41,901 nucleotides of DNA from an uncultured Acidaminococcales bacterium (lineage in GTDB: Bacteria; Bacillota; Negativicutes; Acidaminococcales; Acidaminococcaceae), in NCBI GenBank assembly GCA_964439485.1, contig CAYTOV010000004.1:1-41901 (forward strand), written 5' to 3'. Below are positions 1 through 15,231 of the stretch, piece by piece. The notes beneath the pieces were generated by a model. It was given only the letters and a program-made list of their open reading frames with translations. It ran no database searches and was not told the origin of the DNA. The translations under genes were made by a program, and so were the position numbers. Position 1 is the first letter of the stretch. Every line of letters starts with the position of its first letter.

Positions 1-28
1 GGTGAAAAGGTATAATCGATTCTAGAGA

Positions 29-95
29 GGTCATATAACTGACGGAAGTGGATAACCACATGGAGTATGACCAGTATGAGCCGACCGTCTGGGCA
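29..95 (+). promoter_or_regulatory. ZTP (pfl-motif) riboswitch aptamer
   Basis: P1 is GGTCATA(29-35)/TATGACC(66-72). J1/2 is ACTGACGGAA. P2 hairpin is GTGG-ATAA-CCAC (48-59). The 3' element CCGTCTGGGCA (85-95) compares with the recalled consensus CCGCCUGGGCA. The pseudoknot GACGG(41-45)/CCGTC(85-89) carries a compensatory change. A TATAAT box at 11-16 lies upstream, and an AICAR transformylase gene lies downstream. Confidence 0.8.
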
Positions 96-122
96 GAAGC
101 AGCCCGGAGTGGCGGCTTTTTT
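80..122 (+). terminator. Riboswitch expression-platform intrinsic terminator
   Basis: The composite stem pairs GCCG(a)CC..CTGGGC (80-94) with GCCCGG..GGCGGC (102-116) and is followed by T6 (117-122). Its 5' arm contains the pseudoknot strand 85-89, so aptamer folding and terminator are mutually exclusive (ON switch). Confidence 0.75.
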
Positions 123-5640: not shown

Positions 5641-6315
5641 GTGTCCAGTTTTTGGCAACTGCTTATAGATATCTTTTTTCCACCTGTTTGTATTGAATGC
5701 AGGCAAAGAATTTCTGCAGGAATGTTATGTCCTGCTTGCAGAAAAAAGCTTCATGATTTCAGGATATTGCAGCCGAGAGCTTATTGCTGTCCTGACATTG
5801 AAAGCATATGTTTGTTTTATCGTTATGATGCGGGCATAAAGAAAGCTCTGCATGAGGTAAAATTTCACGGGAAGAAAAGGCTGCTTGCTGCTATGGCTGA
5901 TGAAATGTCAATACTGGAAACACCAAAGCGTGTTTGTGCCATGTGGAATTTGCCAGCAAATATAGTAGTTGTTCCGATACCAACAGACAGGAAGCGTGTA
6001 GCGCAGCGCGGCTACGATGTGCCTCAGGGTATTTTCAGCCAGTGGTCGCAGAAACAAGGTTTTGTTTGGTGTGAGGCACTGGCAAGAATTCGTTCGACGG
6101 AACCTCAATATGGTTTGGACCGAAGTGAACGCCGTAAAAATGTGCGTGGTTGTTTCAACACGATCAGGGATATCCGAGGCAAGCCAATTTTACTGGTTGA
6201 TGATATCTTTACCAGTGGCGCGACCGCTGAAGAGGCTGCTCATATTCTTCGCAAACAGGGAGCCAGCCATATTTGGGCAATGGCGTTTGCCGGCGGTGCC
6301 GATAATGATAAATAA
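5641..6315 (+). CDS. comFC: ComF-family protein (ComFC, PRTase domain with N-terminal Cys4 zinc finger)
   Basis: The CxxC..CxxC N-terminus is PPVCIECRQ..CPACRKK. The PRPP-binding loop is LLVDDIFTSGAT. It follows recD2 closely. Confidence 0.85.
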   Translation: MSSFWQLLIDIFFPPVCIECRQRISAGMLCPACRKKLHDFRILQPRAYCCPDIESICLFYRYDAGIKKALHEVKFHGKKRLLAAMADEMSILETPKRVCAMWNLPANIVVVPIPTDRKRVAQRGYDVPQGIFSQWSQKQGFVWCEALARIRSTEPQYGLDRSERRKNVRGCFNTIRDIRGKPILLVDDIFTSGATAEEAAHILRKQGASHIWAMAFAGGADNDK

Positions 6316-6317
6316 AA

Positions 6318-6359
6318 AACATTCCGTTTTCACATTGGAAAGCGGAATGTTATTTTTTT
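6318..6359 (+). terminator. Intrinsic terminator after comFC
   Basis: The hairpin AACATTCCG(6318-6326)/CGGAATGTT(6343-6351) is followed by T7. It overlaps the 3' end of the convergent HD-GYP gene. Confidence 0.75.
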
Positions 6360-6952
6360 GCAGATATGACTGATTTTAGAAAAGCGTGGACTACATCCGG
6401 GTCGAAGCTCAGACCGGCTCGGTCCTGTAACTCACGGGTTGCATCAGCATGGGATTTCTGCCAGTGCTCTGTACAGGGATTGATTATACGGTCGTAATGA
6501 TTGGCAACAGCGATAATGCGTGCACCTAAGGGAATATTAACGCCTTTTAAACGTTTGGGGTAGCCTGTACCATCCCAATTTTCATGGTGACACAGGATAA
6601 TCTTCATAATATGAGAAAACTCTGGTATGTTTTCCAGCATGCTTGCTCCGGCCAGAGAATGATTCTTGTAGGTTGAGAACTCGCGCGTACTCAGATAAGG
6701 ATATTTACTTAAAATGGTGTTAGGCACTGCCAAGTGTCCAATGTCATGCAGAAGTGCTGCTGTTTTGATGCAGGCGACTTCATCAAAGGGAAGGCCCATT
6801 TTGGCAGATATGCTGACGGAGTAATTGCTTACCTGCTGGCTATGTAAATACAATGTCTTATTCTTTTGTTCCAAAATGGATAAGAAAAAATTGCATAGCT
6901 CCTTTGTCTTCCCATCGTTGGGAAATTCAAGGAATTGTGGAATGGTAAGCAT
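6350..6952 (-). CDS. Stand-alone HD-GYP domain protein (putative cyclic-di-nucleotide phosphodiesterase)
   Basis: HDIGHLAVP (HD) and HHENWDGTGYP (GYP) motifs are present. There is no receiver or sensor domain. Confidence 0.8.
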   Translation of the reverse strand: MLTIPQFLEFPNDGKTKELCNFFLSILEQKNKTLYLHSQQVSNYSVSISAKMGLPFDEVACIKTAALLHDIGHLAVPNTILSKYPYLSTREFSTYKNHSLAGASMLENIPEFSHIMKIILCHHENWDGTGYPKRLKGVNIPLGARIIAVANHYDRIINPCTEHWQKSHADATRELQDRAGLSFDPDVVHAFLKSVISAKK

Positions 6953-7145
6953 GTCTATCCGTCCTTAACTAAATAAAGTAACCAAATACAGTATACTACA
7001 AAAAGAAGCAAAAGAAACGTCTTAGACGGCAATGTTGCGAAAAAAATTTATGTTTAAAGGTATTTTAAATAGTATTTTCTTAGCGCTTGCAGATAATTGT
7101 TATTTGCAAGCGCTGGCTATATGACTGCTTTGAAGTATATTTTTC

Positions 7146-7174
7146 TTGCTATTTCGATAACTTAAAATTATAAT
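7146..7174 (+). promoter_or_regulatory. Near-consensus sigma-A promoter driving the ncRNA
   Basis: TTGCTA (7146-7151), a 17-nt spacer, then TATAAT (7169-7174). Confidence 0.65.
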
Positions 7175-7180
7175 AGGCGA

Positions 7181-7399
7181 AGAGATACAACTCAGGTCTG
7201 TGGTTGCAAGTCGATGCCAGTTGCAGGCAAAACGATCCACGTAAGCAATCAAAGTATTGTGAGCACGGTGCAGCTTAGATGTAAGTCCTGCCGCGAAGAG
7301 CGAGAGGGGTAGTAGTGGGGAGCGATAACGCTTAGGAGCGAAACTTCCTGCAGGCGAGTGTGGGGGCGAAGACCAGGTCAGCTGAGTTGTTTTCTTTTA
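7181..7399 (+). ncRNA. Discrete structured ncRNA, candidate raiA-motif RNA
   Basis: There is no ORF. The element is a G+C-rich island in an AT-rich spacer. The closing helix pairs ACAACTCAG+GGTC (7187-7199) with GACC..CTGAGTTGT (7371-7390) and is followed by TTTTCTTTT. Internal hairpins include CCT-GC-CGC-GAAGA-GCG-AG-AGG (7287-7307) and AGCG-ATAA-CGCT (7321-7332). It lies between comFC and hpf. Confidence 0.6.
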
Positions 7400-7456
7400 T
7401 ATTGTATTTATTCATTAATACCTGTGAATGTTATTCATGTATACATTTACAAGGTA

Positions 7457-7484
7457 TTGTTTTTTTTCTTAGATAGCTTATAAT
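7457..7484 (+). promoter_or_regulatory. Candidate promoter of the amino-acid ABC transporter operon
   Basis: TTGTTT (7457-7462), a 16-nt spacer, then TATAAT (7479-7484). Confidence 0.4.
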
Positions 7485-7527
7485 AATAGAAGTTTTAAGA
7501 ATAAATATTAATCGAGGGGGTATTTTT

Positions 7528-8295
7528 GTGAAAAAGAAATTCCAGATTGTTTGTTTGTGTATGTTTGTCTTTGCTTTATTAGTTGCAGGCTGTGGCGGAA
7601 GCAGTACGAAAAAGGAACTGATTGTTGGAACAGAGCCAGCATTTGCACCTTTTGAGTTCCAAAAAGAGAATTCTAAAGATTTTGTCGGTTTTGATATTGA
7701 CCTCATCCAAGCTATTGCAAAACAAATGGGTTATGAAAAATGCACTATTCAAGGCATGGGTTTTGACGCTTTGATTCCTGCTCTTGATGCTAAAAATATT
7801 GATGTGGCTATTGCCGGTATGACTATCACCGATGAACGTGCAAAAAAAGTTAATTTCTCCAAACCTTACTATAAATCAGGTCTGGCCATAGTAGTTAGCA
7901 AAGACAACAATACAGTCAATGATGTTGCTGATCTCAAAGGCAAAAGAATAGCTGTACAAATTGGTACTACTGGCGCGATGGAAGCTGAAAAAATTGAAGG
8001 AGCAAAGATTACTTCCTTTAATACTAACGGTGAAGCTTGTCTCGAATTAAAAAATAAAGCTGTAGATGCTGTCATTGGTGATTTGCCTGTTGAGGCATAT
8101 TTCCTGCAGCAGGGCGGCAACGACTTTGCTAAGATTGTTGGCAAAACTCTTTCCTCTGAGGATTATGGTATTGCTGTAGCTAAGAGCAACACTGCTTTGG
8201 CTAAGGATGTTGACAAGGCTCTTGACACTCTGAAACAAAATGGCGAATACGATAAATTATACAAAAAATGGTTCGGAGAAATGCCTAAGAAATAA
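7528..8295 (+). CDS. Polar amino-acid ABC transporter substrate-binding lipoprotein (family 3), copy 1
   Basis: The start is GTG with RBS GAGGGGG. The lipobox is LVAGC. The SBP_bac_3-like sequence includes GTEPAFAPFEF and DVAIAGMTIT. Confidence 0.9.
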   Translation: MKKKFQIVCLCMFVFALLVAGCGGSSTKKELIVGTEPAFAPFEFQKENSKDFVGFDIDLIQAIAKQMGYEKCTIQGMGFDALIPALDAKNIDVAIAGMTITDERAKKVNFSKPYYKSGLAIVVSKDNNTVNDVADLKGKRIAVQIGTTGAMEAEKIEGAKITSFNTNGEACLELKNKAVDAVIGDLPVEAYFLQQGGNDFAKIVGKTLSSEDYGIAVAKSNTALAKDVDKALDTLKQNGEYDKLYKKWFGEMPKK

Positions 8296-8396
8296 GGCTT
8301 GACTATTAAGAAAAAGCAAAGAGTGCTAAAAATGTTGCACTTCCCCTTCTTTTGGTTGTATAATTAGCGAAGATAAAAACGCTAGGGGGAAGGTAA

Positions 8397-9167
8397 ATGA
8401 AAAAAAGTTTTTTTGCAGCAATGACTCTTATTTTTGCTCTAGGTTTGTTGATGGCAGGCTGCGGCGGCGAGAAAAAAGCTGAGCAAAAGGTTTTGCGTGT
8501 TGGTACGGAGCCAACTTTTGCTCCTTTTGAGTTCCAAAAAGAAGGCAGCAAAGACTATACCGGTTTCGATATGGATCTTGCACGTGCGATTGGCAAACAG
8601 CTTGGCATGAAAGTTGAAATCGTAAGTATGGGCTTTGATGGCTTGATTCCTGCTCTTAATGCAGGCAACATTGATGCTGTTGCGGCTGGTATGACTGTAA
8701 CACCTGAACGTGCAAATAGTGTTAAATTCAGTGAGCCTTATTACAAATCCGGCTTATCTGTGATGGTACGTAAGGATGAAACTGCTATTACTGGTATAGA
8801 AAGTCTGAAAGGCAAAAAAATAGCTGTACAAATTGGTACTACAGGCGCTATGGAAGCCCATAAGATTGCTGATGCAAAAGTAGTAGAATTTAATACCAAT
8901 ACAGAAGCTGCTTTGGAATTGAAAAATGGCGGCGTTGACGCAGTAGTTAATGATTTGCCTGTAGTTGCGTACTTCCTGCAACAAGGTGGCGGCAAAGATT
9001 TTGCCAAGATGGTTGGCAAGGTTGTAACTGCTGAGGAATATGCAATAGCTGTGAAAAAGGGTAATGATAAGCTGGCTGGTGATATTAATAAAGCCCTGGC
9101 TGAATTGAAAAAGAACGGCGAATACGACAAAATTTATAAAACTTGGTTTGGCGAACAAGTAAAATAA
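8397..9167 (+). CDS. Polar amino-acid ABC transporter substrate-binding lipoprotein, copy 2 (tandem paralog)
   Basis: The lipobox is LMAGC. It is colinear with and highly similar to copy 1 (GTEPTFAPFEFQKEGSKDYTGFD...). Confidence 0.9.
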   Translation: MKKSFFAAMTLIFALGLLMAGCGGEKKAEQKVLRVGTEPTFAPFEFQKEGSKDYTGFDMDLARAIGKQLGMKVEIVSMGFDGLIPALNAGNIDAVAAGMTVTPERANSVKFSEPYYKSGLSVMVRKDETAITGIESLKGKKIAVQIGTTGAMEAHKIADAKVVEFNTNTEAALELKNGGVDAVVNDLPVVAYFLQQGGGKDFAKMVGKVVTAEEYAIAVKKGNDKLAGDINKALAELKKNGEYDKIYKTWFGEQVK

Positions 9168-9185
9168 TCAAGTTATTTTCAAAAC

Positions 9186-9227
9186 CGGAGTACATCGCAG
9201 CGTGTTGCCAGGATGTGCTCCGATTTT
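9186..9227 (+). terminator. Intra-operon terminator/attenuator between the binding-protein genes and the permease gene
   Basis: The hairpin CGGAGTACATC(9186-9196)/GATGTGCTCCG(9212-9222) has one G-U pair and is followed by ATTTTATTTATT. Confidence 0.65.
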
Positions 9228-9265
9228 ATTTATTGCCTTATTTGTTTTTCAATTGATATCTTTTT

Positions 9266-9940
9266 TTGAAAGTTGGTGTTTGCGTGGATTTGAATTTTGA
9301 AATTATACAAAAGGCATTTCCTCTTCTTTTGCAGGGAGCCGGTATTACCATACAGATTACAGCCTTGAGCGTTGGACTCGGTCTTCTCATAGGCATGATT
9401 GTTGGTGTTGCCCGTCTGGCTTCAATTAAAATTGTTAAATATCTGGCTAACATATATGTGGACTTCATTCGTGGTACGCCTCTGTTAGTACAGATTTTCC
9501 TCGTCTATTTTGCGCTGCCGATATTGACGGGCTCCCGTATTGATCCGTTTATTGCGGCCATTGCTGCTTGTTCTATTAACAGCGGCGCCTATATTGCAGA
9601 GATCTTTCGCGGTGGTATCCAATCCATTGATATTGGGCAGACGGAAGCAGGCCGTTCACTTGGCTTAAACTGGTACCAGACGATGCGATATGTAATTATG
9701 CCGCAGGCCTTTAAAAGAATTATTCCTCCTTTGGGGAACGAATTTATTGCGATGCTAAAAGACTCTTCGTTGGTTTCTGTTATAGGTTTTGAGGAACTGA
9801 CCAGAAGAGGTCAGTTGATTATTGCACGTACTTATGCATCTTTTGAAATTTGGCTTGCTGTAGCCTTTATTTATCTGATAATGACATTTACAATTTCACG
9901 CTTCGTGGCATATTTGGAGCGGAGGTACCAGACGAAATGA
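9266..9940 (+). CDS. Amino-acid ABC transporter permease (His/Glu/Gln/Arg/opine family)
   Basis: It is multi-TM with an EAA-like loop ([24 protein letters not shown]). The start is uncertain: TTG 9266 or in-frame GTG 9284. Confidence 0.85.
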
Positions 9941-10656
9941 TTAAAATTAGTAATTTACATAAAAGTTTTGGCACTTTGGAAGTCTTGCAGGGAATTGACC
10001 TGGAAATCGCTGAAAGAGAAGTAGTTGTAATCATTGGACCTTCTGGTTCCGGCAAAAGCACGCTTTTACGCTGCATCAACTATCTGGAAGAACCCACTTC
10101 GGGAACTATCGCTGTTGACGGCATTGAGTTAAGCGGTGAAGCCAATATCAATGCCATTCGCCGTGAAGTAGGCATGGTTTTCCAACGCTTTAATTTGTTC
10201 CCGCATATGACGGTAATGGAAAATCTTTTGCTGGCGCCAATGAAAGTACGCAATCTGACAAAAGCAGAAGCTGAAAAAAATGCCCTTGCCCTATTGATAA
10301 AGGTAGGATTGGAAAGCAAGGCAAATGCTTATCCGGAACAGCTTTCCGGCGGGCAGCAGCAAAGGGTCGCTATTGCACGCGCTTTAGCAATGAAACCGAA
10401 AGCGTTATTATTTGATGAGCCTACTTCCGCGTTGGATCCGGAAATGATCAAAGAAGTTCTGGATGTCATGAAAGACCTTGCGCAGGAAGGCATGACCATG
10501 GTTGTTGTAACTCATGAGATGGGTTTCGCACGTGAAGTTGGCGACAGAGTAATTTTTGTTGATGGCGGCAAAATAGTTGAACAAGGGGCTCCGGAGGCTA
10601 TTTTTTCCCGTGCTAAAGAAGAACGGACCAAGAGCTTTTTATCAAAAATTCTTTAA
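9937..10656 (+). CDS. Amino-acid ABC transporter ATP-binding protein (GlnQ-like)
   Basis: The start [12 protein letters not shown] forms an ATGA overlap with the permease stop. Walker A is GPSGSGKST, with signature LSGGQQQR and Walker [12 protein letters not shown]. The ORF-track start at 9850 is an over-extension. Confidence 0.9.
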
Positions 10657-10809: not shown

Positions 10810-10828
10810 ATAGAAGGAGGTTTTGACT

Positions 10829-11386
10829 ATGACAGTAAATGTACGTGGTAAAAACATCGATGTAACACCGGCATTAAAAGATTATGTTGAGAAAAAAGTT
10901 TTAAAAGTTACAAGACAATTTAAAAATATTGGTGATATTTCTGCACTTATGAGAGTGGAGAAAGGCGATAGCGTCAAAGGCGAACGCATTGGCGATTGCG
11001 TAGTAGAGATTTCTTTCCCGGCAGGGGGCGTAAATTTCAGAGCGCAGGAAACAACCAAGGATATGTACTCTTCTGTTGATCTGGTAATTGAGAAAATTGA
11101 GCGCCAGATTCACAAATATAAAACAAAATTGATGAGAGGCAGATACAATAACTTCCGTGAGGAAGCGCCGGTTATATCCGCTGTTCCAGCTGAAGAGCCT
11201 GAATTTAAAGTCGTCAGAAATAAACGCTTCATTATGCGCCCGATGGGTGTTGAAGAAGCAATTATGCAGATGAATCTTTTGAACCATGATTTCTTCGTAT
11301 TTTTTGATGAAGAGATTGAGGCTGTAAATGTTGTATATCGTCGCAAAGATGGCGATTATGGTTTACTGTCTCCTGAATTGAAATAA
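10829..11386 (+). CDS. hpf: Ribosome hibernation-promoting factor, long form
   Basis: The start MTVNVRGKNIDVTPALKDYVEKK begins an S30AE/RaiA N-domain, followed by a C-terminal dimerisation domain (FMRPMGVEEAIMQMNLLNHDFFVF). The RBS GAAGGAGG lies 8 nt before ATG 10829. Confidence 0.9.
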   Translation: MTVNVRGKNIDVTPALKDYVEKKVLKVTRQFKNIGDISALMRVEKGDSVKGERIGDCVVEISFPAGGVNFRAQETTKDMYSSVDLVIEKIERQIHKYKTKLMRGRYNNFREEAPVISAVPAEEPEFKVVRNKRFIMRPMGVEEAIMQMNLLNHDFFVFFDEEIEAVNVVYRRKDGDYGLLSPELK

Positions 11387-14123: not shown

Positions 14124-15231
14124 TTGCTTATAGAAGAATATAGACCAGAAATAAACAATTTAAAGCAGAAGTTAGACGAAATGAGGGGATCTCTTTGACG
14201 TCGCTCGCAAAGAGGACCGCATTGCTGAATTAGAACATAAAATGGGTGAGCCTAATTTTTGGGATAACCCGGAAGAAGCGCAAAAAGTCGCGCAAGTCGT
14301 TACACAACTAAAAGACGAAGTAGGCATTTTCCGGTCTTTGGAAACCAGATCGGAAGATCTGGAAGTTATGCTGGAACTTGCAATGGAAGAAGAAGACGCA
14401 GATATTGTCGGCGAAATCGAGCAATCATTGACGTCTGTACGTGCTGACATCGAACATCTTGAGCTAGGCATGCTTTTGTCAGGTGAATATGATGCAAACA
14501 ATGCGATTTTGACTTTACATGCCGGTGCAGGCGGAACAGAAGCTCAGGATTGGACATCAATGCTGCTCAGAATGTTTGGACGCTTTGCAGAGCGTTCTGG
14601 CTACAGTGTTGACGTTCTTGACTACCAACCAGGCGATGAAGCTGGCGTTAAAAGTGTTACTCTTGGTATTAATGGGCATAATGCCTATGGTTATATGAAA
14701 TCGGAAAAAGGCGTGCACCGTTTGGTCCGCATTTCTCCGTTTGACTCCAATGCGCGCAGACATACCTCGTTTGCAGCAGTTGATGTTATGCCGGAAATTG
14801 ATGACACAGTAGAAATTAATATCAGTCCTGCAGATTTAAAAGTTGATACCTATCGTGCCAGTGGCGCAGGCGGACAACATATTAATAAAACAGATTCTGC
14901 TGTACGTATGACGCATATCCCTACAGGAATCATAGTACAGTGCCAGAATCAACGTTCCCAGATACAAAATAGAGAGCGTTGCATGCAGTTGTTGCGCGCC
15001 AAATTATTTGAATATGAGAAACAAAAACAAGCAGAACTGAAATCCGATATTGCCGGTGATTATCAGGCGATAGAATGGGGCAGTCAGATACGTTCATATG
15101 TTTTTCACCCATATAATATGGTTAAAGACCACCGGACAGGCGCTGAAACAGGCAATGTGCAGGCTGTCATGGACGGTAATCTGGAACTTTTTGTCGAAGC
15201 ATACTTACGTAGTTTGCAGAAGATAAAATAA
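14124..15231 (+). CDS. prfB: Peptide chain release factor 2, requires programmed +1 frameshift: join(14124..14195,14197..15231)
   Basis: Frame 0 reads (V K R) L L I E E Y R P E I N N L K Q K L D E M R G S L, then stops at TGA 14196-14198. The +1 frame continues DVARKEDRIAELEHKMGEPNFW... and carries the SPF and GGQ motifs. The start is TTG 14124 (RBS AAGGAAG) or GTG 14115. Confidence 0.92.
14184..14199 (+). promoter_or_regulatory. RF2 autoregulatory +1 frameshift site
   Basis: AGG GGA TCT CTT TGA C: an internal SD-like AGGGGA, a 3-nt spacer, then the slippery CTT followed by in-frame TGA C. Confidence 0.9.

Follow-up and report, generated by a model that had tools for sequence, protein, structure and literature searches.

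The window analysed here, a stretch of 41,901 nucleotides (nt) of contig CAYTOV010000004.1 from an uncultured Acidaminococcales bacterium (assembly GCA_964439485.1), contains a 575-nt gap without annotated coding between a gene for an HD-GYP protein and the first binding-protein gene of an ATP-binding cassette (ABC) importer. The gap runs from 6953 to 7527 according to the list of open reading frames (ORFs) of the window. An initial annotation, made from the sequence alone, had pointed out this gap and had placed in it a stand-alone structured RNA of ~215 nt between comFC and hpf, which it guessed to be a raiA-motif RNA. The gap is as described, and the guess was right: positions 7187–7390 of the + strand virtually certainly encode a raiA-motif RNA (ModT). 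The features of the locus are as follows, with P1 as the closing stem of the RNA.

5641–6315 (+): ComF-family (ComFC/GntX-like) protein (Pfam Pribosyltran, 27.0 bits against a cut-off of 26.3; DZR_2)
6350–6952 (−): stand-alone HD-GYP protein of 200 amino acids (aa), divergent from the RNA gene (Pfam HD_5, 128.8 bits)
7146–7151 and 7169–7174 (+): sigma-A-type promoter, TTGCTA and TATAAT with a 17-nt spacer (10 of 12 matches)
7187–7390 (+): raiA-motif RNA (ModT), 204 nt, subtype without P2 and with P8 (RF03072, structure mapping and covariation)
7391–7399 (+): U-rich tract TTTCTTTTA, directly after P1
7416–7459 (+): AT-rich hairpin (19 pairs, UCAU loop), with U8 at 7460–7467; candidate intrinsic terminator
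7457–7462 and 7479–7484 (+): weak candidate promoter of the ABC operon, TTGTTT and TATAAT with a 16-nt spacer (9 of 12 matches, relaxed scan)
7528–10656 (+): polar amino-acid (GlnH/P/Q-like) ABC importer (Pfam and NCBIfam matches)
7528–8295 and 8397–9167 (+): the two GlnH-like binding proteins of the importer
9266–9940 (+): its permease
9937–10656 (+): its ATPase
10823–11386 (+): long-form Hpf/RaiA ribosome hibernation factor (Pfam Ribosomal_S30AE and Ribosom_S30AE_C)

In the scan of the window against Rfam 15, the RNA was recognised as raiA (RF03072) with 195.4 bits, against a gathering score of 101.3, and an expectation value (E) of 2.7e-50. The match spans model positions 1–209 of 209 and has the very P1 ends that the initial annotation had proposed; a permissive scan of 6940–7560 agrees. 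For a second element in the intergenic region, such as a glutamine riboswitch before the binding-protein gene, the permissive scan returned chance-level matches only (mir-932, E 0.74; IsrM, E 0.67), so that raiA was the only family above chance. The content of guanine plus cytosine (G+C) is 0.50–0.55 over 7200–7399 against 0.21–0.37 on either side, which bears out the G+C-rich island in AT-rich flanks noticed earlier; that of the whole window is 42.7%. The RNA was also rightly taken to be non-coding, as the only ORFs of at least 20 aa within it are 24, 27, 32 and 50 aa long. Every defining feature of RF03072 that can be tested on sequence is present. The element is already known in the sense that it is another copy of an Rfam family, which occurs in more than 2,700 species and has Negativicutes among its recorded hosts (PMC10861870).

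For the structure we counted pairs on the revised architecture of Soares et al. 2024 (PMC10861870) and the cryo-electron microscopy of He et al. 2026 (PMC12968392). The 2017 Rfam consensus departs from this model in that it draws pseudoknot 1 (PK1) as nested and pairs positions 28–30 with 173–175. In the RNA of the window, each of the 60 pairs of the published architecture is a standard pair, also in PK1 and pseudoknot 2 (PK2). Its elements, all on the + strand, are listed below with window positions first and RNA positions in brackets.

P1a: 7187–7195 with 7382–7390 (1–9/196–204), 9 base pairs (bp)
GU bulge: 7196–7197 (10–11), in the 5' strand of P1
P1b: 7198–7200 with 7379–7381 (12–14/193–195)
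P1c: 7201–7204 with 7372–7375 (15–18/186–189)
GGU bulge: 7376–7378 (190–192), in the 3' strand of P1
P3a: 7210–7213 with 7233–7236 (24–27/47–50)
P3b: 7216–7218 with 7226–7228 (30–32/40–42)
Asymmetric A-rich internal loop of P3: AU at 7214–7215 facing AAAA at 7229–7232, a loop described in PMC12968392
PK1: 7220–7225 with 7269–7274 (34–39/83–88), 6 bp
P4: CCAC at 7237–7240 with GUGG at 7360–7363 (51–54/174–177), enclosing P5, the pseudoknot linker and P6–P8
P5: 7241–7264 (55–78)
PK2: C7266-G7267 with C7367-G7368 (80–81/181–182)
Single-stranded linker UUAGAUGUAA: 7275–7284 (89–98), between PK1 and P6
P6: 7287–7291 with 7350–7354 (101–105/164–168)
P7 hairpin: 7292–7302 (106–116)
P8: 7306–7347 (120–161), with a loop-E motif and a distal hairpin at 7321–7332

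Relatives were collected by matching 23 conserved bases of the 3' region exactly against one genome per GTDB species. This yielded at least 120 loci from Clostridia, Negativicutes, Coriobacteriia, Acidimicrobiia and other Actinomycetota, and 42 distinct RNAs of the same subtype, taken from among the loci listed, were aligned. In this alignment 94.2% of the cells pair, compared to 31–40% when the 3' partners are slid by 1–3 columns. The covariation score is 0.446 against 0.055–0.109 for the slid partners, and the observed values were reached by none of 500 shuffles, a count that is not a probability. Double-sided changes occur in 37 of the 60 pairs, among them three pairs of PK1 and one of PK2. 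The search for homologues and covariation that the initial annotation had suggested therefore came out in its favour. Among the 100 columns that are at least 90% conserved, the RNA of the window deviates only at positions 80, 86 and 182, all of which lie in compensated pseudoknot pairs (U36:A86 and C80:G182).

In P1a, ACAACUCAG (7187–7195) is perfectly complementary to CUGAGUUGU (7382–7390), as had been proposed for the two ends of the RNA. The GGTC/GACC pairing that was proposed along with it is not a pairing of the family; GACC(A) at 7371–7375 pairs with UGGU at 7201–7204, which forms P1c. All 16 pairs of P1 are standard in the window, double changes are found at all nine pairs of P1a, and the bulge bases G10, G190, G191 and U192 are unchanged in 42 of the 42 aligned sequences. 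The J1 junction consists of G20-C21-A22, with A23 and A183 present, and C21 is shared by 16 of the 42 relatives. In members of the family that lack P2, J1 is a tetraloop-like GAA(A), to which the PK2 region contributes a bulged A that completes the fold.

P3a and P3b pair in 100% of the cells, three of their pairs show double changes, and A28-U29 faces A43–A46 in the internal loop between them. The apical loop of P3b (7219–7225) provides the 5' strand of PK1, which pairs in 99.6% of the cells and has compensatory double changes in three pairs; here the window has U36:A86 instead of the majority C:G. The initial annotation had paired TGCAGG at 7222–7227 with CCTGCA at 7347–7352, which corresponds to no helix of the family: the former segment belongs to PK1 (with 7269–7274) and P3b, and the latter to P8 and P6. 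P4 is uninformative for covariation because its pairs are invariant in the alignment. PK2 is formed by C80:G182 and G81:C181, with GGGCGAAG as the joiner at RNA positions 178–185. The two Watson-Crick pairs and the joiner conform to the family, where PK2 is further flanked by G-A pairs and P4 is joined to P1c by the 8-nt GGnCGAAG. Positions A79, G178, G179, A183 and A184 of the PK2 region are invariant in the alignment, and C80:G182, which the window shares with locus L059, replaces the majority U:A as a compensatory change. The linker UUAGAUGUAA recurs as an identical 10-mer in 8 of the 42 relatives, and 41 of the 42 follow the pattern nUAGnnGUAA. This exposed linker has been proposed as the recognition site for KhpA/KhpB or another partner (PMC12968392).

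Among the peripheral arms, P7 shows a compensatory change from C:G to U:A between the window and locus L129. P8 has double changes in 10 of its 10 pairs and carries a loop-E motif, with AGUA at 7311–7314 (125–128) facing GAA at 7340–7342 (154–156); the motif is found in 20 of the 42 relatives. A P8 with a loop-E arm defines the subtype that makes up 68% of the family. The hairpin that had been predicted at 7321–7332 is real and forms the distal part of P8. The one predicted at 7287–7307 is not a single hairpin; it contains the P7 hairpin (7292–7302), and the rest of it is the 5' strand of P6.

Compared to known members, the RNA most resembles the type of Clostridium acetobutylicum, which is likewise 204 nt long, lacks P2 and possesses P8. 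Both have P1a, P1b and P1c with the GU and GGU bulges, the kinked P3a/P3b core, PK1, PK2, the UUAGAnGUAA linker, a short P7 and the loop-E motif of P8, and both have a SigA-type promoter and a place between comFC and hpf. They differ in J1, which is G-C-A(A) and not G-A-A(A) in the window, while the pairs U:A for C:G in PK1 and C:G for U:A in PK2 set the window apart from the majority. To judge by the sequence, this variation in J1 and in two compensated pseudoknot pairs is within the known range of the family. The host differs as well, being a Gram-negative-type member of the Negativicutes that probably does not sporulate, and so does the locus, where HD-GYP and ABC-importer genes stand between comFC and hpf in an arrangement kept across the clade. 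More distantly, 6S RNA and OLE RNA are similar to raiA in being abundant, stable, housekeeping-like and broadly conserved in sequence and fold, with phenotypes at growth transitions and with protein partners that are known or suspected. Yet neither has any similarity to raiA in sequence or structure, and the Rfam scan of 6940–7560 reported only raiA and the two chance-level families.

The closest raiA RNAs outside the species, among the matches listed, are those of an Acidaminococcales metagenome-assembled genome (MAG) with 87% identity and of Veillonella species with 84–87%. These matches and those of the neighbouring proteins place the host in the Negativicutes. A few matches fall outside the expected hosts. 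Two contigs labelled as Acidobacteriota carry raiA above the gathering score, L058 (3211–3451, 151 bits) and L116 (1187–1443, 112.9 bits), the latter a Blastocatellales MAG in which the P3 region is divergent. These lie beyond the two phyla usually cited and could reflect mis-binning, transfer or a wider range. Near-identical raiA RNAs on contigs of one study binned as Alloprevotella/Bacteroidaceae (L016, 1968–2181; L041, 1691–1904) look clostridial and are probably binning errors.

The transcription signals point to a separate transcription unit. TTGCTA-17-TATAAT is the only promoter-like site found on the + strand of 6700–7800 by the consensus scan, as the initial annotation had recognised; from the end of its −10 box to the first paired base there are 12 nt, whereas a distance of 7 nt to the island was stated there. 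Transcription would start near 7181. The promoter is unchanged in the near relatives L129 and L130, in which the sequence further upstream diverges, and in every relative examined TTGCxA-16/17-TATAAT ends 6–15 nt 5' of P1. Immediately after the 3' end follows the T-rich tract TTTCTTTTA, again as described before, where a short isoform of ~215 nt probably ends. Such a U-tract after P1 is typical of the Negativicutes clade. P1 plus U-tract was also considered as a terminator of the whole family and rejected, because it occurs in 18% of the low-GC loci against a background of 7%, among the loci listed.

Further downstream, the terminator consensus scan of 6700–7800 found nothing; the hairpin with U8 emerged on folding and comparison with relatives. 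The hairpin (7416–7459) has a fold z-score of −3.2, none of 200 shuffles fold as well, and its G7424:C7450 pair is U:A in both L129 and L130, a compensatory change. In Veillonella and the P. faecium-like relatives, canonical GC-rich terminators occupy the corresponding position. Termination at the hairpin would yield a long isoform of ~285 nt. With the U-tract and the terminator hairpin, transcripts of ~215 and ~285 nt are therefore predicted, similar to ModT of Clostridioides difficile, which has a SigA promoter and isoforms of 215 and 260 nt that are explained by a read-through model (PMC11706538). Short and long isoforms are indeed what the downstream terminator hairpin of the window predicts. 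The RNA thus very probably has its own promoter and a separate transcript in this genome. The initial annotation had also assigned a promoter to the ABC operon. Its candidate is plausible but weak, falling below the threshold of the main scan with a poor −35 box, although the TATAAT is kept in L129 and L130, and some read-through from the RNA may occur.

The stretch between the HD-GYP gene and the raiA promoter also contains an inverted repeat at 7082–7114, the 10-bp arms of which (AGCGCTTGCA / TGCAAGCGCT) match perfectly and are separated by 13 nt. The nearest relatives L129 and L130 do not share the 3' arm, and the repeat could be an operator, a leader hairpin or a product of chance.

The genomic setting is that of the family. 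The interval from comFC to raiA(hpf) is its usual home (PMC10861870, PMC12968392), with 74% of members reported downstream of comFC and 66% upstream of raiA/hpf, the gene after which the RNA family is named. The initial annotation had named this home correctly, along with the fact that the biochemical function of the RNA is unknown, on which the literature agrees (PMC10861870, PMC12968392). Across the family, the distance and orientation to the downstream gene vary, and no dedicated partner-protein gene has been linked to the RNA. In the window a ComF-family gene lies upstream and hpf downstream, with the HD-GYP gene and four ABC genes intervening; together with the raiA match and the promoter, these flanking genes support the stand-alone RNA of ~215 nt between comFC and hpf that had been proposed.

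A ComFC-type gene is the customary 5' neighbour of raiA RNA (PMC10861870, PMC12968392). The product of 5641–6315 scores 82 bits against NCBIfam ComF, which is under the cut-off, and a RecD2/YrrC helicase gene accompanies it upstream of the RNA. The HD-GYP protein (6350–6952) has intact HD and HHENWDGTGYP motifs, and its top NCBIfam match is the cyclic di-guanosine monophosphate (c-di-GMP) phosphodiesterase region of NosR-family regulators. The top matches of the importer genes are GlnH, GlnP and GlnQ. All of these are below the equivalog cut-offs, and the substrate of the importer is therefore left unassigned. Hpf (10823–11386) matches TIGR00741 with 84.2 bits against a cut-off of 40.9, and the SecA and PrfB genes lie beyond it.

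We consider a stand-alone structured non-coding RNA to be the best overall explanation, with a probability of roughly 85%. The sequence and the comparisons speak directly for transcription from its own housekeeping-type promoter (7146–7174) and for a fold in which a long three-part P1 projects from a compact core of P3a/P3b, P4 and the two pseudoknots, with P5, P6–P7 and the loop-E-bearing P8 as peripheral arms and the UUAGAUGUAA linker left single-stranded. Transcription would end at the U-tract (~215 nt) or at the hairpin and U8 of 7416–7467 (~285 nt). By homology with C. acetobutylicum and C. difficile, the RNA would be abundant and stable and would act in trans rather than on its neighbours. 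It would most likely serve, through the P1 arm and the exposed linker, as a binding platform for proteins or a ligand, and would tune the switch from growth to stationary phase, partly through cellular c-di-GMP. By analogy, such a trans-acting scaffold for proteins or a ligand is the best available guess at the mechanism, and we would put the odds on it at about even.

Much of this reading derives from studies of two species. Work on C. acetobutylicum showed complementation in trans, defects in sporulation and aggregation, and high abundance of the RNA (PMC10861870), and knock-outs have been complemented in trans in C. acetobutylicum and C. difficile only (PMC10861870, PMC11706538). Without the RNA, cells enter stationary phase later, sporulate and aggregate less, and have more c-di-GMP owing to dccA (PMC10861870, PMC11706538). 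Moreover, the KH proteins KhpA/KhpB bind four family members in vitro at ~2 μM, possibly through the exposed UUAGAnGUAA linker (PMC12968392).

Several points weigh against a trans-acting RNA of this kind or against the evidence that we bring for it. The 23-base pattern of the scan fixes 23 columns of the alignment, and the 5' ends were picked by their P1a complementarity; the pairing counts of P4, of the 3' strands of P1b and P1c, and of P1a are therefore biased upward and are not independent evidence. Where the RNA starts, its two 3' ends and its abundance are predictions for this organism. Negativicutes such as Veillonella are not known to sporulate, and the clostridial phenotypes are therefore not simply transferable. 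The affinity of KhpA/KhpB is only micromolar and was obtained in vitro (PMC12968392), and in the earlier in vivo data of Lence et al. ModT was not recovered with KhpB (PMC11706538). Finally, the spacing between the RNA and the importer genes suggests that in this clade the RNA may do more than act in trans.

In all Negativicutes loci sampled, the binding-protein gene adjoins the 3' side of raiA on the same strand, and the spacer between them ranges from 30 to 251 nt. Spacers of 204–251 nt (Veillonella) and of 130–142 nt (the window and P. faecium-like loci) contain a terminator hairpin and a second promoter, while those of 111–119 nt contain only the U-tract and a good second promoter of up to 11 of 12 matches. 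In four lineages, L059 (1382–1411), L197, L208 and L139, the spacer measures 30–42 nt and holds only the U-tract and a ribosome-binding site. The promoter scan found no second promoter of at least 9 of 12 matches in these lineages, and in L059 and L208 none even of 8 of 12. Their RNAs are nonetheless full-length raiA with 194–197 bits. With such a short spacer and no second promoter, the transporter would therefore be read through from the promoter of the RNA or from one embedded in the RNA gene.

An alternative explanation, which we regard as unlikely but which fares best among the alternatives, is that raiA acts in cis as the leader of the glutamine-type ABC importer and hpf genes, whether in addition to a role of its own or in place of it. 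Once formed, P1 would terminate transcription conditionally together with the U-tract, so that the strong promoter of the RNA also supplies the downstream genes, and the mature RNA would be the stable 5' product. The chief point in its favour is the start codon 30–42 nt after P1 in L059, L197, L208 and L139, and the constant co-orientation and adjacency of RNA and binding-protein gene point the same way. That raiA is followed by binding-protein genes in two phyla was described as early as 2017 (PMC5737381), and Rfam types the family as 'Cis-reg; riboswitch'. Riboswitch and attenuator leaders are similar to raiA in this clade in being structured, co-oriented with and upstream of a transporter operon, and in having a closing stem followed by a U-tract. 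They differ from the RNA of the window, where a separate terminator hairpin and promoter intervene, and members of the raiA family act in trans (PMC10861870, PMC11706538). A riboswitch is expected in the 5' untranslated region of its gene, with an expression platform and no independent promoter in between. In the window, the 19-pair hairpin with U8 and a candidate promoter with a conserved TATAAT box part the RNA from the operon; L059, L139, L197 and L208 would conform to that expectation. Most relatives have a clear second promoter (9–11 of 12 matches), and the knock-outs in two clostridia were complemented in trans (PMC10861870, PMC11706538). Family-wide, the distance and orientation of the downstream gene are not fixed, and in vitro tests in 2017 found no ligand (PMC5737381).

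The initial annotation had regarded the conserved comF-hpf synteny as interrupted by an HD-GYP gene and an ABC transporter. These genes are present, but they are not peculiar to this genome: the order RecD2, ComFC, divergent HD-GYP gene, raiA RNA, glutamine-type ABC importer and hpf characterises the whole sampled Negativicutes clade and is identical in the Veillonella and Acidaminococcales genome loci. Judged from this shared order, the 'interruption' is the ancestral state of the clade. In a profile search of metagenome contigs for the HD-GYP protein, of which the best 80 loci were kept (62–100% identity, L129–L208), raiA was present in 75 of the 80 and divergent (head-to-head) from the HD-GYP gene in 75 of the 75, with a gap of 100–150 nt in 70 of these. 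Of the five remaining loci, four extend less than 740 nt upstream. In the fifth, L143, a homologue with 68% identity has 5 kb of upstream sequence in which neither blastn nor Rfam detected raiA. The pairing was also found in all five Negativicutes genome loci with upstream coverage (L015, L044, L059, L114 and L123).

We rejected HD-GYP as a family-wide neighbour of raiA, as it was found in 12 of the 120 genome loci listed, about half of them Negativicutes. Outside the Negativicutes, when the listed loci are limited to those with no less than 3 kb of downstream sequence, an HD-GYP gene lies within 3 kb in 1 of 39 that are high-GC and in 1 of 20 that are low-GC. Separately, a multi-pass membrane HD-GYP gene lies 1–6 kb downstream of raiA on the same strand in seven of the 120 loci listed (L011, L012, L020, L064, L069, L093 and L097), which belong to Coriobacteriia, other Actinomycetota and one Clostridiaceae MAG. 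The association is therefore one at the level of the clade, possibly from a single evolutionary event.

The pairing fits the reported link between ModT and c-di-GMP in C. difficile. It raises the possibility, a rather slim one in our view, that the raiA RNA is the functional partner of the HD-GYP phosphodiesterase, sensing or buffering c-di-GMP or pGpG or regulating the enzyme, and that this partnership is the primary reason for the effect of the RNA on c-di-GMP-dependent lifestyle switches. The intact HD and HHExxDGxGYP motifs, the head-to-head arrangement in the metagenome loci, its recurrence in the five genome loci and the membrane-bound HD-GYP genes of other lineages would all suit such a partnership, as would the rise in c-di-GMP upon deletion of ModT in C. 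difficile (PMC11706538) and the non-canonical binding of c-di-GMP that the structural work leaves open (PMC12968392). Against this, the association is rare outside the Negativicutes, the cases within them may stem from one ancestral arrangement and so count as one event, and the homologue of L143 stands without raiA. The c-di-GMP effect in C. difficile is accounted for by dccA transcription (PMC11706538). Nor does the RNA resemble the c-di-GMP-I and c-di-GMP-II riboswitches, with which it has in common only c-di-GMP physiology and here an adjacent HD-GYP gene; it has no Rfam match to them, and the raiA fold is reported to be unlike theirs (PMC12968392).

Possibly, raiA is the hub of a conserved Acidaminococcales/Veillonellales module with a dual role, in trans coupled to HD-GYP and in cis through P1 and the U-tract, which as a conditional terminator or processed 5' leader would set read-through from the very strong promoter of the RNA into the importer and hpf. 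Taken jointly, we hold this to be doubtful, somewhat more so than the leader on its own. If true, it would open a first way to the mechanism of this RNA, the biochemical function of which has been a question since 2017. The main texts of Soares et al. 2024 (PMC10861870) and Lence et al. 2024 (PMC11706538) mention neither the HD-GYP pairing nor the short-spacer arrangement, and we present both as leads, not findings. The pairing may help work on raiA function, and the short-spacer lineages offer a natural test case for a raiA RNA within an mRNA. Veillonella parvula, a genetically tractable species, carries the same HD-GYP/raiA/ABC/hpf module.

Less probable still is a ribozyme, in which the conserved core would be the active site for a reaction on the RNA itself or on other RNAs. 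The ~50 near-invariant nucleotides, two pseudoknots and rigid core of the family recall ribozymes (PMC10861870), the window retains all near-invariant positions, and altered levels of tRNA and 5S RNA in the C. difficile mutant led to similar speculation (PMC11706538). However, the literature consulted, including four structural studies (among them PMC12968392), reports no catalytic activity, and nothing in the present sequence analysis bears on catalysis.

We give next to no probability to the island being GC-rich by chance or a functionless remnant: folded as a single sequence, 7187–7390 is no more stable than shuffled sequence (z = −0.56) and has a minimum-free-energy structure unlike the family fold, but such folding was set aside as uninformative for a pseudoknotted RNA, and the idea is refuted by the covariance-model E value, by the compensatory pairing and by the RNA being 97–100% identical in near relatives across independent metagenome assemblies while the flanks diverge. 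The case for more than chance hence rests on the covariance-model score and covariation, not on thermodynamic stability.

Elsewhere in the window, the region 15254–41790 is occupied by housekeeping genes, including DUF5693 and a CsaB-type pyruvyl transferase, ftsE/ftsX, an M23 peptidase, ctpB, uvrB/A/C, a bioB-W-F-D-A operon, rapZ, a yvcK-like CofD gene and whiA; tRNA genes were absent from this region. The prfB gene has a canonical programmed +1 frameshift site, CTT TGA C, at 14193–14199 (+), with a Shine-Dalgarno-like AGGGGA upstream of it (14184–14189). Its first ORF (ORF0) starts from TTG at 14124 (14124–14199, +), and a 329-aa ORF (14242–15231) follows in the +1 frame. At the other end of the window, a ZMP/ZTP (pfl) riboswitch aptamer at 25–101 (+), with 54.2 bits against a gathering score of 39, lies immediately 5' of a purH-type gene, which the gene tables of identical contigs list as AICARFT_IMPCHas; this is a classical arrangement.

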